Virus record (IMG/VR): IMGVR_UViG_3300046535_001869
Span: 32,001 to 96,000 of that record
Source of the DNA: a virus
Length of the DNA stretch: 64,000 nt
Strand: one strand, 5' to 3'
Shown: piece by piece, positions 54,442 to 63,046 of the stretch
How positions within the stretch are numbered: the stretch's first letter is position 1
Layout of the letters: every line of letters starts with the position of its first letter
Notes under the pieces: model-generated
Database searches by the model: none
The model's input: only the letters and a program-made list of their open reading frames with translations
Told to the model about the DNA's origin: nothing
Program-made: the position numbers and the translations under genes

Positions 54442-55050
54442 ATGATAGATCTTGATCTACCGTGGCGCGCTCTTGGTATTCAGCCCAGATCCGAGATTGC
54501 TGTATCGGGATTCATTAGTGATCTCGATTTTATTTGTTATTGTCCGAGTTATAAGATGGTCATGGTTCACCGTGGTAAGAAACGCGAAACAGTTGTTCCG
54601 TTTATTCATTCTTATATTTTTGTCAGATTTGGCTTTGATGCTATAACGTGGCATCAGATGATGAATATTGTTGGGGTCAATCGGATACTTCTTGGTCGAG
54701 TTGCTGAGGAGGAAATTTTGCAGTTGCGTCATCAGGTTGGTGATGGAACTGGGGTGCTCAGTTATGAGGTGAGAAAGATTTTTCGGAGGATTAATGTCGG
54801 CGATCGAATAACCCTGTGCAATGGGGTATTCGCAGGAACAGATGGCGTTGTCGAAACTGTCGATGATGAGCTCCAGGTCGGGGGTATAAATATCTCTTTA
54901 CTTGGTCGAGAGATCGTGGTAAACCAACCTCTGGCTTGGTGTGAGAAGAGTGCTCCGGCCACTGATGGTGGACCTGGAACCCGCTCCCGTAAGCGCCATA
55001 GGAATGGTCGTTTACGAAGTCCTTATGTGAATCTTGGTTCACAGGCTTAA
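54442..55050 (+). CDS. NusG/RfaH-family transcription antiterminator
   Basis: NGN PFIHSYIFVRF; KOW VGDRITLCNGVFAGTDGVV...LLGRE; first gene of the late arm. Confidence 0.8.
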   Translation: MIDLDLPWRALGIQPRSEIAVSGFISDLDFICYCPSYKMVMVHRGKKRETVVPFIHSYIFVRFGFDAITWHQMMNIVGVNRILLGRVAEEEILQLRHQVGDGTGVLSYEVRKIFRRINVGDRITLCNGVFAGTDGVVETVDDELQVGGINISLLGREIVVNQPLAWCEKSAPATDGGPGTRSRKRHRNGRLRSPYVNLGSQA

Positions 55051-57981: not shown

Positions 57982-58716
57982 ATGGAGACAGCGACGCCCC
58001 TTTTAGACACCCTCCGCCGCGACGGCATCGCCCGCGTCTACCCGCCCCTCGGCGCCGGCCCGGCGGCCGAGCTCGCCGCGTACCTGCGCGCCGCGCCGTG
58101 CTACCCGGGCCACGTGCGCGTGTACGGCGACGGGGTCGCGCGGTCGTGGGATGTTACCTCGGAGATATGTGACGTCTGGTGCCATTCCTTGGAGACGATC
58201 GTCCTGGCGCCCCATCTCTGGGACCTGGCGATTGGCCTCCTCCCGGCCGCCGCGCGGTACCTCGACGCCCCACCACGGCTCTATTCGATGAATGCCTTCT
58301 GGTCGCGCGCGTCCGCTACCGAGCCGATGCTTGACCTCCAGACCTGGCATCGCGACCGCGACGACGATAAGTTCCTCGCGCTGTTCGTCTACGGGACCGA
58401 CGTGCTATGCGAGGAGGACGGACCGCACCGGTTTATGATCGGGACCCACGACCCGAAGTGCGTGATGGCGAACTACGGACCTCCGGTCTTCGGCCCTGCC
58501 GGCACGACCTTTCTCGCCGACACGCGCGGCCTTCACATGGGGGTGAAACCAACGAGCCGCGAGCCACGCCTAATCGTCTGGGCGCGTTACGGCATCTCCG
58601 AGCGCCCGTGGGCCTACGGGCAGGATCAACTGGCGCCGGTCGCGGCAGCGCGACTCGGGGATCGCTATCCACCGGACGCGGCGACGCGGAAGATGGTGGA
58701 GCTCGTCGCGGCGTGA
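57982..58716 (+). CDS. Fe(II)/2-oxoglutarate dioxygenase (PhyH-like)
   Basis: WHRD (HxD), DGPH..GTH, GPAGT.FLADT.GLH, distal R. Confidence 0.75.
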   Translation: METATPLLDTLRRDGIARVYPPLGAGPAAELAAYLRAAPCYPGHVRVYGDGVARSWDVTSEICDVWCHSLETIVLAPHLWDLAIGLLPAAARYLDAPPRLYSMNAFWSRASATEPMLDLQTWHRDRDDDKFLALFVYGTDVLCEEDGPHRFMIGTHDPKCVMANYGPPVFGPAGTTFLADTRGLHMGVKPTSREPRLIVWARYGISERPWAYGQDQLAPVAAARLGDRYPPDAATRKMVELVAA

Positions 58717-61421
58717 AGTCCGCCACCGTAACCCGACTCCCCGGGACCCGGCGCCAGCGCGCCGCGAAGGCAGCTCCGTCGATCTCGCAGCAGGCGGTCG
58801 ATACCTCAGCCCAGCGGCGCCAGCGGCGCGTCGACCCGTTCGCGATGCCCCACCATCCGCCCGGCGTGATCCCCGCGGGCGAGGGTGGTTCGAAGATCGC
58901 CCAAGATTCCGCGATAGACGAGGCTTGGGTCTGGGCGCAGCAGTCGTTCATCAACAGCGCGGTCGCCGAGGGCACGACGTTCCTCGGCTACGCCGCGCTC
59001 TCGATCTTGGCCCAGCGCGCCGAGTACCGCGTCATCTCCGAGGAGATCGCCTCCGAGATGGTCCGCGAGTGGATAGAGCTGAAGGCGGTCGGAGACGAGG
59101 ACAAGACCGAGCGGATCGCTCAGCTCAACGCTGAGATGGAGCGGCTCGATGTCCGCGCGGCGTTCGAGCGCGGCGGCGCGGTCTACGACGGACTCTTCGG
59201 CCGCGGCCACGTCTACCTGGATACAGGTGACTCGGACGATCGCGACGAGCTGAAGACCCCGATCGGCGACGGGTGGAACTTGATGAGCCGGTCGAAGATT
59301 GGGCTCGAGGGCCACAATGGCAGGACTGAGACTAAAAAGATCCTCGCCCTGCGCCCGGTCGAACCCGTCTGGTGCTATCCGACGACGTACGATTCCAACG
59401 ACCCGCTGAAGCCAGACTGGTATTGCCCGACGACGTGGCACGTTATGGGGAAGGAGGTCCACGTCTCGCGCCTGCTGACGTTCATCGGTCGTGAGGTTCC
59501 TGACCTGTTGAAGCCCGCCTACTCCTTCGGCGGCCTCTCGATGTCCCAGATGGCCAAGCCGTACATCGACAACTGGCTGCGCACGCGCCAGTCGGTCAGC
59601 GACAAGGTGGCCTCGTTCAGCGTCCGCGGGATCAAGACCCCTGGCCTGGCGGCCTCGCTCAGCGCCGGGGGCGACCTAATCTACAAGCGCGCCGAGATCT
59701 TCAACAACATGGTCCAGAACTCCGGGCTGATGCTGCTCGACAGCACCAACGAGGAGTTTTTCGAGGTCGCGACGCCGCTCGGCGGGCTCCATGAGCTCCA
59801 AGCGCAAGCGCAGGAGCACATGGCTTCTGTGAGCAGAATACCTCTTGTCAAGCTCCTGGGCATCACCCCGTCCGGCCTGAACACCTCGACCGAGGGCGAG
59901 ATCCGCTCGTTCTACGACTGGATTGCTAGCTTCCAGGAGCACCTGTTTCGCAAGAACCTCCACGCGGTCATCGGGTTCCTCATGCTCGGGCTGTGGGGAG
60001 AGGTGGACCACGGGATCAAGTTTGAGTTCAAATCCTTGTGGCAATTGGACGAGGCGGCCCAGGTCGCGGTTGAGAAGACCAAGACAGACATCGACGACGC
60101 GAATGTCGCGATGGGTTCGGTCAGTCCCGAGGAAGTTCGCAAACGGATCGCTCAGGATCCATCCTCGACCTATGCCGGCCTCGACCTCGACCCGGACGAG
60201 CTCCCCGAGCCGCCCGGCGGCGAGATGGAGATGGGCGAGCCAGGATCGGAACTGATGGGCCATAATGGCGGCCCAGAGCTGAACGACGAGGGTGAGGTTC
60301 GCTCCCCACCGTCGCCTGGTGCCCCAAAGGGCGCGATCCCCGGCGCACGCAACCCGCGTGATAACTCGCTGTCCGTTACCTCGCGCGCCGGCAACCTCGC
60401 CTCCCCGACCGGTGGGTTCGGCGGTGATTCTTTAGCTGAGGAGGTTCATGTCTATCTTGAGGCTGTAAACGACTCCCGTCACGCTAATGACAAGTGGAAT
60501 GAGAGCGACCATCCTCGAGGCAATCCCGAGAACTCCGGCGAATTTACCTCAGGAGGCGGTGGCGGTAAAACAAGTCATCTTCATCCATCAGAAGGCAGCG
60601 GAAAAGAACGCACCGCGGTTGGTGGTGGGGGCCTTCCAGAACATATCGTTAGTCTGGCGATACCCCCTGCATGGACTGACGTGAAATACAGTTCGGATCC
60701 AAAAGCCGACCTTCTGGCGGTTGGTCGTGATGCAAAAGGCCGCGAACAGCGAATATACTCGGATGCATACCACGCGGCCCAGGCTGAGGCTAAGTTTCGA
60801 CGAATCTCCGAACTGAGTGACAAGTTCAAAGATATCAAAGCGCAGAACGAGGAGCTGCGGAAATCGCCCGATAAACGTGTCCGTGATTCTGCTGACTGCA
60901 CAGCCCTAATCATGTCGATGGGTATCCGTCCTGGCGGGGAATCGGATACTGGCGCCGATAAGTACGCTTATGGTGCGACGACGCTCAAAGGCGAGCACGT
61001 GGTTACCGAATCTGATGGTTCGGTGCGCTTGAAATTTGTTGGCAAGAAGGGCGTTGATCTCGATCTACCGGTCGAGGATCGAGGTCTCGCGCATATGCTG
61101 GTATCCCGGGCACGCAGGGCCGGCGCGAGTGGGCAGATCTTCCCCAGTACGAGCGCCGGTGCACTCCTTGGGCATGTTCACACGTTGGACGGTGGTGGGT
61201 TCAAAACAAAGGATTTTCGGACCCTGCATGGCACCAGAACAGCGATCAAAGAAGTTGCCCGCCAACCGGTACCGAGGTCGGCCTCGGCCTATAAGAAAGC
61301 CGTGCGATCAGTCGCGGCAGCGGTTGCAAGAACATTAGGCAATACCCCGACAGTCGCGCTACAATCATACATCAACCCCGTTGTTTTTGCCCGATGGAGA
61401 TTGGCAAGTGGCGCAGCATGA
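58713..61421 (+). CDS. DUF1073-type portal protein fused to a type IB DNA topoisomerase domain
   Basis: Portal: FLGY..LS.LAQRAEYR, VHVSRL, YSFGGLSMSQ, RIPLVKLLGITPSGLN. TopIB: AIPPAW, GRDAKGR.Q..Y, IRPG, FVGKKG, KDFRT, LGNT, SYINP. No stop between the two; GTGA start at 58713. Confidence 0.88.
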   Translation: MKSATVTRLPGTRRQRAAKAAPSISQQAVDTSAQRRQRRVDPFAMPHHPPGVIPAGEGGSKIAQDSAIDEAWVWAQQSFINSAVAEGTTFLGYAALSILAQRAEYRVISEEIASEMVREWIELKAVGDEDKTERIAQLNAEMERLDVRAAFERGGAVYDGLFGRGHVYLDTGDSDDRDELKTPIGDGWNLMSRSKIGLEGHNGRTETKKILALRPVEPVWCYPTTYDSNDPLKPDWYCPTTWHVMGKEVHVSRLLTFIGREVPDLLKPAYSFGGLSMSQMAKPYIDNWLRTRQSVSDKVASFSVRGIKTPGLAASLSAGGDLIYKRAEIFNNMVQNSGLMLLDSTNEEFFEVATPLGGLHELQAQAQEHMASVSRIPLVKLLGITPSGLNTSTEGEIRSFYDWIASFQEHLFRKNLHAVIGFLMLGLWGEVDHGIKFEFKSLWQLDEAAQVAVEKTKTDIDDANVAMGSVSPEEVRKRIAQDPSSTYAGLDLDPDELPEPPGGEMEMGEPGSELMGHNGGPELNDEGEVRSPPSPGAPKGAIPGARNPRDNSLSVTSRAGNLASPTGGFGGDSLAEEVHVYLEAVNDSRHANDKWNESDHPRGNPENSGEFTSGGGGGKTSHLHPSEGSGKERTAVGGGGLPEHIVSLAIPPAWTDVKYSSDPKADLLAVGRDAKGREQRIYSDAYHAAQAEAKFRRISELSDKFKDIKAQNEELRKSPDKRVRDSADCTALIMSMGIRPGGESDTGADKYAYGATTLKGEHVVTESDGSVRLKFVGKKGVDLDLPVEDRGLAHMLVSRARRAGASGQIFPSTSAGALLGHVHTLDGGGFKTKDFRTLHGTRTAIKEVARQPVPRSASAYKKAVRSVAAAVARTLGNTPTVALQSYINPVVFARWRLASGAA

Positions 61422-61620
61422 AGAAGATCAAGATCAGTTACCGGAAATTCATTTCGGCACCGCAACTGCTAAGCCGACCGTGAACTGGCGGGATGAGGAG
61501 TTCGACGATCCGGATCCTGATGATGACGAGGAACTAGCCGAAACCCCGGCCGATGTGATTAGCATGCTGGGATTTGATCCCCTGGACGACGAGCCGGATG
61601 AGTCTTCACGTTCACTTTAG
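61408..61620 (+). CDS. small highly acidic protein
   Basis: GGAGA RBS, GTG 61408; DDPDPDDDEELAETPADVISMLGFDP. Confidence 0.65.
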   Translation: MAQHEEDQDQLPEIHFGTATAKPTVNWRDEEFDDPDPDDDEELAETPADVISMLGFDPLDDEPDESSRSL

Positions 61621-63046
61621 AAGCTCGATCGATCCTGGCCGAGCTCGCCGGTTCGCTGGTCTACTTCAAAACCATGTCGGAGTCTTAGAGGAAGGCAAAT
61701 ATCTCCGTGATCCCGCCGGCACGCTATGGCGGGTGCGTGAGGTCCGCCGGGTTGTGGCGCTGGCACACGACGGCCTGGCAATGGATGAGATCTCCTGGAA
61801 AGAGGAGGAGCATCCCAGGGCGAAGAACGGCGAGTTCGCTAAGTCCTCCGAAGTTAGCCAGCACATAAAGGGCACACTCAAGACTGCCGGATATACTCCT
61901 TCCAAGTTCGGCGGGTATTATCATTCATCTGGTCACCATGTAAGAATTATGTCCCCCGAGGGCGGGCAGAAACTGTCCTCAATCTGGGAGCACCGGCATG
62001 GGGGGACAAACAAGTTTGCCCACGGTTTCGGTTCGCCGAGTTTGTTGGCATATTTAGACAAAATCAAAAAACAGCCCGAGGCGAAGACTGAGACTCCAAA
62101 GGTCGAGCCAAAGGTCGAGGCTGAGATCTCGAAGACCGCGATAAAGCTTCCAAAGAAGCCTGGCCCCATCACCTCGCCCTCGAATGCGCATAATCAGAAG
62201 CATCTCGATACGTTAGAGGCACTGGCCCTCGCAGGGAAGTGGGACGCGCTCCTCGCGTACAAGAACAAGCTGAAGGGGAGTAATGGCTACGCAAGAATGA
62301 TCCAGAAGTACGGCGACGAGTTGCTTGCTGCCCGGTCGCAGACCGGGGAGGTCACGAAGAACGAACTGAAAACCACGCAATCGTACGAAGATGGATTAGA
62401 GTTCCACGCGACAGATACTGTTAGTGAACTCTTTCAATCTCGTGTGAAAACTACGTGGAGTATGTTACCCGAAAGCGTGAAGAGTGCGGTCGTAAAAAAC
62501 GGCACGCAGGTTCGCATGGGATTTTCTACAACGGAGGTAATGCCACATCTTAAAGATATGGCACCAAGAGGTTGGCCCAAGGGGAGCACCTGGGACATGG
62601 CGGAGGGACTTTATAGTCCATCTATAAACTCCGTAGTAGTGTCTGAAAATCTCTATGATAGAAGTCTCCGGGAATTTATTCCAACGCCTCGCGCCAAGGC
62701 GGTATTACGGCACGAAATAGGTCATGCATACGATCGTGCTTTGGCGAATAGTACAGATCCAGGGGTCGAGTATTCTCAGTCGCAGAAGTTCCGCGAAGAC
62801 TATAATGATGATTACAACGCAATGGATTTGAAGGCTGGTAGATATTCTGGAATAGGTTATTATCTGCAAGAGGGCAATGCTGGACCGTCCGAGACATTCG
62901 CTGAGATAACTGCCCAAGTTATGGCAGAAGTGGGAAGCGAAGGGGTCCTTGGGACCGGTGGCTCTAGTCTAGTGTTTTTAAAGGACTGGTTTCCAAAGAC
63001 ATATGCACACATAAAAACCCTAATCATTGGAGAGACCGAGGCGTGA
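61598..63046 (+). CDS. putative virion-associated protein with C-terminal anthrax-lethal-factor-like zinc metallopeptidase domain
   Basis: WKEEEHPRAKNGEF tag; GLY...LRHEIGHAYD...SQKF...Y...SETFAE. Confidence 0.75.
   Translation: MSLHVHFRSSIDPGRARRFAGLLQNHVGVLEEGKYLRDPAGTLWRVREVRRVVALAHDGLAMDEISWKEEEHPRAKNGEFAKSSEVSQHIKGTLKTAGYTPSKFGGYYHSSGHHVRIMSPEGGQKLSSIWEHRHGGTNKFAHGFGSPSLLAYLDKIKKQPEAKTETPKVEPKVEAEISKTAIKLPKKPGPITSPSNAHNQKHLDTLEALALAGKWDALLAYKNKLKGSNGYARMIQKYGDELLAARSQTGEVTKNELKTTQSYEDGLEFHATDTVSELFQSRVKTTWSMLPESVKSAVVKNGTQVRMGFSTTEVMPHLKDMAPRGWPKGSTWDMAEGLYSPSINSVVVSENLYDRSLREFIPTPRAKAVLRHEIGHAYDRALANSTDPGVEYSQSQKFREDYNDDYNAMDLKAGRYSGIGYYLQEGNAGPSETFAEITAQVMAEVGSEGVLGTGGSSLVFLKDWFPKTYAHIKTLIIGETEA

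Follow-up and report, generated by a model that had tools for sequence, protein, structure and literature searches.

A 64,000-nucleotide stretch of viral DNA (the window) was analysed, which corresponds to bases 32001–96000 of the 109,299-bp IMG/VR record IMGVR_UViG_3300046535_001869. The record has 127-bp direct terminal repeats, is rated complete and belongs to an uncultured phage, whose sequence is present in soil and rhizosphere runs. One gene of this window encodes a portal protein fused in frame to a type IB DNA topoisomerase (TopIB). As judged from its sequence, the added part is a cassette composed of a leader, a putative [AG]-x-D cleavage site, a short tag, the TopIB and a translationally coupled acidic gene, grafted on the C-terminus of a portal of the E217/PB1 type. 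The TopIB cassette is, by composition and phylogeny, a mobile module recently acquired by this portal. We hold it rather probable that TopIB is cargo packaged in the head of the phage, and rate any one target proposed for it, be it the incoming genome or the host chromosome, much lower. Positions of all features are collected in Table 1.

The portal–TopIB gene is one open reading frame (ORF) with the genes of the small and large terminase subunits (TerS and TerL) upstream. Its GTG start coincides with the first residue of the homologue P0002, which is 82% identical, and a longer listing of the gene from ATG 58407 was rejected in favour of this GTG, which is backed both by the start of P0002 and by the GTGA overlap with the preceding ORF. 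Residues 94–461 match Phage_portal_3 (PF06381, DUF1073/TIGR01555) above the curated cut-off (E 4e-73), and among PHROGs the portal half is recognised by phrog_146 (portal, E 4e-91). Solved structures matching this half are gp19 portals of the type found in Pseudomonas phage E217, 9b41 (E 2e-28) and 8fvh (E 5e-26), and the alignment to E217 gp19 reaches residue 550. In the E217 virion the portal is ordered only at residues 97–528 of 765, and its C-terminal barrel points into the head (PMC10329688). By analogy with this structure the C-terminus of the portal studied here would be located inside the head, and a dodecameric ring at one vertex may be expected likewise. In some other DUF1073 portals (P0034, P0060 and P0073) the core is interrupted by Hint/intein domains (PF13403, PF07591).

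Both domains of the TopIB part are recognised above curated cut-offs: Top1B_N_bact (PF21338) with E 8.5e-10 and 38.7 bits (cut-off 27), and Topoisom_I (PF01028) with E 1.5e-19 and 70.7 bits (cut-off 23.7). The best sequence match among solved structures is TopIB of Deinococcus radiodurans (2f4q, E 3.5e-23), and in this alignment the catalytic Arg, Lys, Arg, Asn and Tyr of the bacterial enzyme, which we take to be R137, K174, R239, N280 and Y289, are matched by R739, K778, R836, N877 and Y886. The five residues are invariant in all 64 portal-fused TopIB domains found among the 120 best homologues, and about 70 more positions are conserved there at a level of 90% or higher, with the fused domains being only ~40–60% identical and the whole proteins 37–56% identical to the query. 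The same pentad is invariant in an alignment of 61 TopIB proteins on other carriers. The AlphaFold2 model that was built for residues 576–902 with 50 homologues has a mean predicted local distance difference test (pLDDT) score of 90.8, with values above 90 for the strands of the N-terminal domain (model residues 48–107). Foldseek matched this model to variola TopIB covalently bound to DNA (2h7f, 290 columns, query TM-score (TMq) 0.69) and to the D. radiodurans enzyme (3m4a and 2f4q, E ~3e-13). Thus, the N-terminal beta-sheet domain and the catalytic domain are both there, and the predicted model has the two-domain C-shaped clamp fold. On the basis of sequence and model the enzyme is complete and apparently active, and its conservation indicates that it is under selection. 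Like other type IB enzymes it would be expected to relax DNA independently of ATP, by way of a covalent 3'-phosphotyrosyl intermediate. An earlier note, made from the letters of this DNA alone, had described one uninterrupted 902-aa frame downstream of terL with a DUF1073-type portal half, an acidic/Gly-Pro linker and a TopIB domain with all five catalytic positions in place. Profile searches and alignments bear out each of these points, including the linker, since Gly, Pro and Glu abound in residues 491–575.

The border between portal and module is marked by a change in composition. The portal part has a guanine-cytosine content (GC) of 0.647 and the module one of 0.555, and at third codon positions (GC3) the value drops from 0.842 to 0.523. 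In a tree of 116 portal cores, built with FastTree and deserving moderate trust, the query portal nests within a clade of short portals. Two of them, P0002 and P0003, are 93% identical to the query portal in the kept core columns, and they end a few residues past GGFGG, where the additional 327 residues of the query begin. On this tree the presence of TopIB requires at least 15 changes, at least six of which are forced by well-supported branches. The TopIB nearest to that of the query (67% identity) resides in a 475-aa Nudix-tag-TopIB protein, which has no portal. The impression of the earlier note that the TopIB half is richer in AT and may represent a swappable cargo module is therefore upheld. 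The survey of C-terminal extensions on homologous portals, which it had also proposed, was made with the portal core only, that is without bias for cargo. Among the 120 nearest portals seven carry TopIB, five an ADP-ribosyltransferase (ART), one a zeta toxin and one a GNAT domain; about ten more are long with unrecognised extensions, and the rest are short.

The range of TopIB carriers extends far beyond this portal family. A search with TopIB alone against 1.84 billion cluster representatives returned 1,064 clusters (50% identity) at E <1e-30, and in the best 150 of these 1,064 clusters TopIB is mostly the C-terminal domain of proteins 260–2,365 aa long. In the 61 TopIB proteins on other carriers Pfam registers NUDIX (11), ADP-ribosyltransferase (6), MuF (5), Portal_Mu (4), InPase (3) and DUF2213 (3), as well as HK97- and lambda-type portals, 2H phosphoesterase, Acb1, zeta toxin, RelA/SpoT and GNAT; four portal families are represented in this set. 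TopIB is either fused to the portal or encoded by a separate tagged gene of the head module in 46 IMG/VR loci, and in three of them (L014, L020 and L026) it has MuF on one side and the DUF2213 protease on the other.

The enzyme is preceded by a conserved junction tag, which the earlier note had not described, as it had not described the acidic partner gene and the fact that portal-fused effectors form a known class (PMC5512222). In the homologue set nearly every long portal has the tag ahead of each added module, and short portals have none. The logo of 207 non-redundant instances shows Phe or Trp at position −5 (92%), Glu at position −3 (91%) and the triplet HPR (at least 97%), followed by a Gly-rich spacer. 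Six-frame scanning of the phage genome with the HPR/HDP...GxF pattern gave five copies, all of them in frame and confined to three head-module genes. In stand-alone tagged TopIB genes the tag is found 15–40 residues from the N-terminus, after a short hydrophobic leader ending in Asp; the query module, with a similar leader, gives the impression of a complete cargo gene joined to the portal. Two variants occupy the place of HPR before TopIB, [FY][DN]PxQPRDxxG[RK]W (QPRDxxGRW) and GSGNFGHxGRPGxxGGS (GSGNFGHxGRPG), for instance in L027, L033, L042, P0130 and P0198, and they sit in many proteins that the search pattern scored as untagged. They may be forms of one signal or signals for different capsid systems. 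Searched at E up to 1, Pfam yields no model that fits the tag, whose alignment also has no match among PDB profiles, the solved chains, including E217 gp19, being devoid of it. The short portal P0019 (555 aa, core 77% identical) ends with ...AAEVHVYLEAAT, the peptide that opens the cargo leader in the query. The leader may be part of the own C-terminus of some portals, or P0019 may be cut at a contig end.

The leader ends in a triplet that resembles a processing site of prohead proteases. An [AG]xD motif is present no more than seven residues before the aromatic residue of the tag in 57% of 189 tags, as compared with 5.7% of random heptamers from the same proteins. The major capsid protein of this phage contains a single A-x-D, namely A-M-D at residues 45–47, which is kept in three of four aligned homologues and replaced by A-V-D in the fourth. 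It falls where the capsid protein of E217 becomes ordered, allowing for its 17 extra residues. The scaffold-position protein, whose gene starts 2 nt past the stop of a 1191-aa polyprotein, has eleven [AG]-x-D sites, and in this polyprotein, as in two homologues of it, the DUF2213 domain is immediately preceded by A-Q-D. The DUF2213 domain has a profile match with E 2e-40 and invariant His, Ser and His; the top PDB matches of its model (pLDDT 77) are T4 gp21 and herpesvirus proteases, both weak (E 3e-3 to 1e-2). Probably, the 1191-aa protein is a self-processing prohead protease that carries further cargo. The features of the [AG]-x-D junction are consistent with cleavage by such a protease, and it is probably the DUF2213 enzyme that would cut TopIB free for delivery with the DNA.

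The small gene that overlaps the end of the TopIB frame encodes a strongly acidic protein with 24 Asp/Glu and 3 Lys/Arg, and its GC3 of 0.535 is module-like. The motifs HFG, DWR, DDDEEL and MLGFDP are conserved. A homologue with xLGFDP follows TopIB directly in 37 of the 46 loci, counting those with enough DNA, and this motif is almost restricted to the position after TopIB. In L014, L015 and L025 the partner forms an in-frame fusion with the tagged module that follows or with the protease, which hints that it is packaged too. No Pfam family (E up to 1) and no atlas family was found for this protein, its ESM Atlas scores (≤0.80) being in the uninformative range. We infer that it serves as an inhibitor or chaperone of TopIB, perhaps as a DNA mimic.

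These data can be arranged into the following scheme. The portal dodecamer, if built as the solved E217 portal, would bring up to twelve copies of TopIB into the prohead. There the assemblin/gp21-like DUF2213 protease would cut at A591-N-D593 and free a tagged TopIB of ~33 kDa. The acidic partner may keep the enzyme and DNA apart, whether in the producer cell, within the head, or in both places. Finally, TopIB would leave the head together with the genome and relax the incoming or the host DNA before phage gene expression, as may be supposed by analogy with poxviruses, whose TopIB is carried inside the virion, is available before viral genes are expressed and acts in early transcription. To our knowledge, poxviruses provide the only viral precedent for a virion-borne TopIB. 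A broader version is possible but doubtful, according to which the leader, the [AG]-x-D site and the tag form a widespread and undescribed system for cargo loading and release in heads of tailed phages, comparable in its role to the capsid-targeting sequence of T4 and to the cargo-loading peptides of encapsulins. TopIB with its acidic plug would then be among the commonest payloads, and infection would call for it within the first minutes, either to adjust the topology of the incoming genome or to collapse the supercoiling of the host.

Several points weigh against delivery as packaged cargo. Beyond the existence and conservation of the gene all its steps are inferred, and a folded 33-kDa clamp-shaped enzyme would have to be unfolded or squeezed through the tail channel. 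No [AG]xD occurs within seven residues of 43% of the tags. The comparison of capsid proteins includes five sequences that are ~60% alike, and the cleavage argument rests on a three-residue motif. The fold match of DUF2213 is below the usual significance threshold, and the association between tag and DUF2213 is moderate (15 of 27 tagged versus 6 of 19 untagged fetched loci, many loci ending early). The tag also accompanies Mu-, HK97- and lambda-type portals, whose proteases may be different. Lastly, only a contig from the probable source run reaches across the portal–module junction; it is left unbridged by an independent rhizosphere run, where identical contigs break off at 60401 and start again at 60443.

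The earlier note had offered two mechanisms, twelve topoisomerases held at the DNA channel or a domain clipped off in the prohead and injected, and of these the latter fits the evidence better. If TopIB stayed on the portal ring, it could relieve twist in DNA immediately inside the portal, either while the genome is packaged or as its ejection begins. Twelve copies on flexible tails of ~130 residues would then be placed beside the DNA entry, behind the inward-facing barrel. That no recognised cargo is commoner than TopIB on the 120 nearest portals and that no other topoisomerase was registered among the families searched in the phage would also suit such a role. However, it leaves unexplained why TopIB resides on MuF, on protease polyproteins, on Nudix/ART proteins and in stand-alone genes, and near-identical portals manage without it. 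Furthermore, the junction resembles a processing site, and linear DNA with a free end in the head should shed twist by rotation, as expected from established physics. We therefore regard the channel role as unlikely and prefer clipping and injection, because tagged TopIB occurs on non-portal carriers and as a stand-alone protein and because the junction site is protease-like, with an assemblin/gp21-like protease encoded nearby. Another scheme shares the packaging step with this preferred reading and differs in target and purpose: TopIB may damage or shut down the recipient's DNA, for takeover or for killing of competitors, and the acidic protein may be the immunity factor of the producer. The conserved small gene found after the enzyme in most loci and translationally coupled to it here would agree with this, as the order of enzyme and small gene is typical for toxin–immunity modules (Zhang et al. 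2012, PMC3482391; Jamet et al. 2017, PMC5576092). Co-domains such as ART, zeta toxin, RelA/SpoT, Acb1 and 2H are classic conflict effectors as well. Yet efficient religation is characteristic of TopIB, no toxic role is known for it, and its homologues are present on bacterial chromosomes. In addition, the fusions of the partner to a tagged module or the protease suggest its packaging rather than being left behind in the producer. The phage genome shows no avoidance of the pentamer CCCTT, at which poxvirus and bacterial TopIB preferentially act: the twofold depletion obtained under a mononucleotide model was gone under a third-order Markov model (observed/expected 0.92, rank 178 of 1024). A toxin–immunity pair is thus, in our estimate, also improbable.

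The least probable explanation, and a very improbable one, is that the fusion is an accident without function, which arose from an error of assembly or sequencing or from recent read-through. The break in the contigs of the second run and the foreign composition of the module would speak for it. To check the linker for a missed stop, as had been suggested in the earlier note, contigs from four metagenome runs were placed on 58400–61700. One Logan contig of the probable source run covers the whole stretch of the gene with zero differences; with the junction left unbridged in the independent run, the support from reads is partial. The third run (soil) contains a 95%-similar relative that diverges at 60421, and two of the four runs (X3 and X4) hold only small shares, which come from relatives. 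The break between 60401 and 60443 is better explained by strain variation at the module border, and natural populations seem to differ in what follows the portal at this point. The order portal-tag-TopIB is common to more than 60 independently assembled and diverged proteins (37–56% identical), which excludes a missed stop as a general explanation, and the conservation of the catalytic pentad together with ~70 other positions is hardly compatible with loss of function. A separately translated TopIB was considered and rejected, as there is no in-frame ATG, GTG or TTG at the border. The stretch GAGGAGG at 60438–60446 resembles a ribosome-binding site; the sole ATG nearby is out of frame and is followed by a stop after six codons.

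Several known systems can be compared with the putative cargo. In T4, internal proteins and Alt are loaded by an N-terminal capsid-targeting sequence, trimmed by the prohead protease gp21 and ejected with the DNA, and head proteins of the giant phages phiKZ and SPN3US are cut at [S/A/G]-x-E, the sites of T4 and giant phages being generally x-x-E. The cassette resembles them in the short leader, in the putative cut behind an acidic residue that has a small one at P3 and, as the weak fold match may suggest, in a protease of assemblin/gp21 fold. It differs in that the putative site is A-x-D instead of x-x-E, in that the ~18-residue tag is C-terminal of the cut and would stay on the cargo, and in that loading could also be covalent, through portal, MuF or protease. 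TopIB of vaccinia and variola viruses is a small ATP-independent enzyme with the same two-domain clamp fold. However, its identity to the query is ~20%, its fourth catalytic position is His, whereas here it is Asn, and it is a free core protein, unfused and devoid of tag and acidic partner. With D. radiodurans TopIB (2f4q, 3m4a) the query shares the R-K-R-N-Y pentad and the Top1B_N_bact domain at an identity of ~28–30%; the bacterial enzyme is stand-alone and chromosomal, and its first ~38 residues are replaced here by leader, tag and Gly spacer.

The closest conceptual relatives are the portal- and MuF-fused effectors described by Iyer, Burroughs, Anand, de Souza and Aravind in 2017 (PMC5512222) as phage-type "polyvalent proteins", such as the portal–InPase protein BcepF1.124. 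This class is characterised there as head proteins of terminase-portal phages with enzyme domains predicted to be packaged and injected, and its signature domains ART, NUDIX, InPase, 2H, MuF and RelA/SpoT are those with which TopIB shares polypeptides. The portal–TopIB protein likewise combines a head protein and an effector in one late-gene polypeptide, the effector being shuffled among carriers. In that paper topoisomerase appears only in the title of a reference, TopIB is not listed as cargo, the HPR tag and the acidic partner are not mentioned in the passages retrieved by term, and the processing enzyme proposed is the zincin MPTase, whereas a prohead serine protease is proposed here. Stand-alone TopIB of 541–562 aa was described in the jumbo phages Achromobacter phage Motura, Pseudomonas phage PaBG, Lu11 and phiRSL1, where it was placed among replication and recombination genes and not among portal fusions (Iyer et al. 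2021, PMC7824862). These enzymes have the same fold (BFVD matches with E 6e-11 and 1e-10) at ~18% identity, and tblastn with the query TopIB misses them.

Among 50,697 genomes of phage isolates no record contains the fusion protein at ≥80% coverage, and tblastn with TopIB alone returned nothing at E <1e-5, its one weak match (2e-4) being a stand-alone gene of a Bacteroides phage. The fusion is missing from this collection, which is why it has remained unstudied so far. Our literature search, whose coverage excluded most subscription journals, found no paper joining a portal or capsid protein with TopIB or describing the tag. Portal- and MuF-fused effectors and the stand-alone TopIB of jumbo phages are known, and TopIB as putative portal cargo with tag and partner is, as far as we found, new. 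If TopIB is packaged, then a large proportion of the tailed phages, uncultured to date, import an ATP-independent topoisomerase of their own, which raises the question which topology the incoming phage genome needs or what relaxation of the host nucleoid achieves. If it is injected, many uncultured phages would, like poxviruses, carry DNA relaxation as a function of the virion. The tag could be used to mark proteins loaded into phage heads or serve in their engineering, and the acidic partner may prove to be a natural inhibitor of TopIB. The nearest named portals belong to prophages of Rhizobium and Mesorhizobium, among which a cultivable example might be sought. A profile search of genome contigs with the module alignment (one pattern) gave eight loci, all in metagenome-assembled genomes of scattered phyla, which points to no particular host.

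Table 1. Features of the portal–TopIB gene and its surroundings. Positions refer to the window unless another sequence is named; residues are numbered along the portal–TopIB protein.
Feature	Residues	Position	Strand	Remarks
Portal–TopIB gene	1–902	58713..61421	+	902 codons + stop (61419–61421); GTG start overlaps the stop of the upstream ORF (GTGA)
Portal proper	1–575	58713..60437	+	Pfam Phage_portal_3 at residues 94–461 (58992–60095)
Gly/Pro/Glu-rich portal tail	491–575	60183–60437	+	ends with the conserved portal end motif RAGNLASPTGGFGG
Module leader (EEVHVYLEAV...)	576–593	60438..60491	+	ends in the putative prohead-protease site A591-N-D593
Junction tag, KWNESDHPRGNPENSGEF	594–611	60492..60545	+	consensus [FW]xExxHPR(x3-9)GxF
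Gly-rich spacer between tag and enzyme	612–622	60546..60578	+	low to middling pLDDT
TopIB N-terminal beta-sheet domain	~623–683	60579..60761	+	includes the IPPAWTDV motif; Top1B_N_bact at 645–673
TopIB catalytic domain	684–902	60762..61418	+	Topoisom_I at 690–882; structure model; Foldseek
Catalytic residues	R739; K778; R836; N877; Y886	60927–60929; 61044–61046; 61218–61220; 61341–61343; 61368–61370	+	alignment with 2f4q
Acidic partner gene, 70 codons		61408..61620	+	GTG behind GGAG, 14-nt overlap with the end of the TopIB gene; start codon chosen by us
ORF of 244 codons between TerL and portal		57982–58716	+	GTGA overlap couples it to the portal start
NusG-like protein		54442–55050	+	PF02357, E 8e-10; PHROG "transcription antiterminator"
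Next head-module gene, ~482 codons		61598..63046	+	ATG start; leader MSLHVHF, A-M-D site, HPR tag (H at ~61811), HExxH zincin-like region
Mildly acidic ORF of 69 codons		63043–63252	+	directly after the HExxH gene
1191-aa polyprotein, outside the window		G000:C1:100289–103864 (L002:7290–10865)	+	at least three tags (HPR and HDPKTGQF variants), Nudix, C-terminal DUF2213

The head module to which the portal–TopIB gene belongs consists, in this order, of the genes for the NusG-like protein, TerS, TerL, the 244-aa ORF, portal–TopIB, the 70-aa acidic protein, the tagged HExxH protein of ~482 aa, a methyltransferase, MuF, the 1191-aa Nudix + DUF2213 polyprotein, the scaffold-position protein, an E217 gp24-like cement protein and the major capsid protein. 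Because of this content and order the head is assigned to the E217/PB1 type. The 244-codon ORF has no match in Pfam or PHROG. The tagged HExxH gene has a weak Pfam match to ATLF (E 7e-4, below the cut-off), the ORF 61574–63046 that contains it has a GC3 of 0.564, and together with the mildly acidic ORF behind it this gene looks like a second tagged cargo protein with a small partner of its own.

The phage itself encodes a DNA polymerase of family A, a primase-helicase of the VapE type, a ribonucleotide reductase of class II, and helicases resembling UvrD and SNF2. Family searches of the complete genome found neither a type IA nor a type II topoisomerase, and in its six-frame translation the portal-borne TopIB is the sole match to Topoisom_I (74.4 bits). 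The NusG-like gene heads the late operon, immediately upstream of TerS, and GC climbs sharply across it from ~0.37–0.44 to ~0.57. Outside the window, between MuF and the protease polyprotein, a minus-strand ORF (L002:5997–6704) contains a NUMOD3 motif with E 6e-4, just under the cut-off, and a homing endonuclease may possibly reside within the head module.

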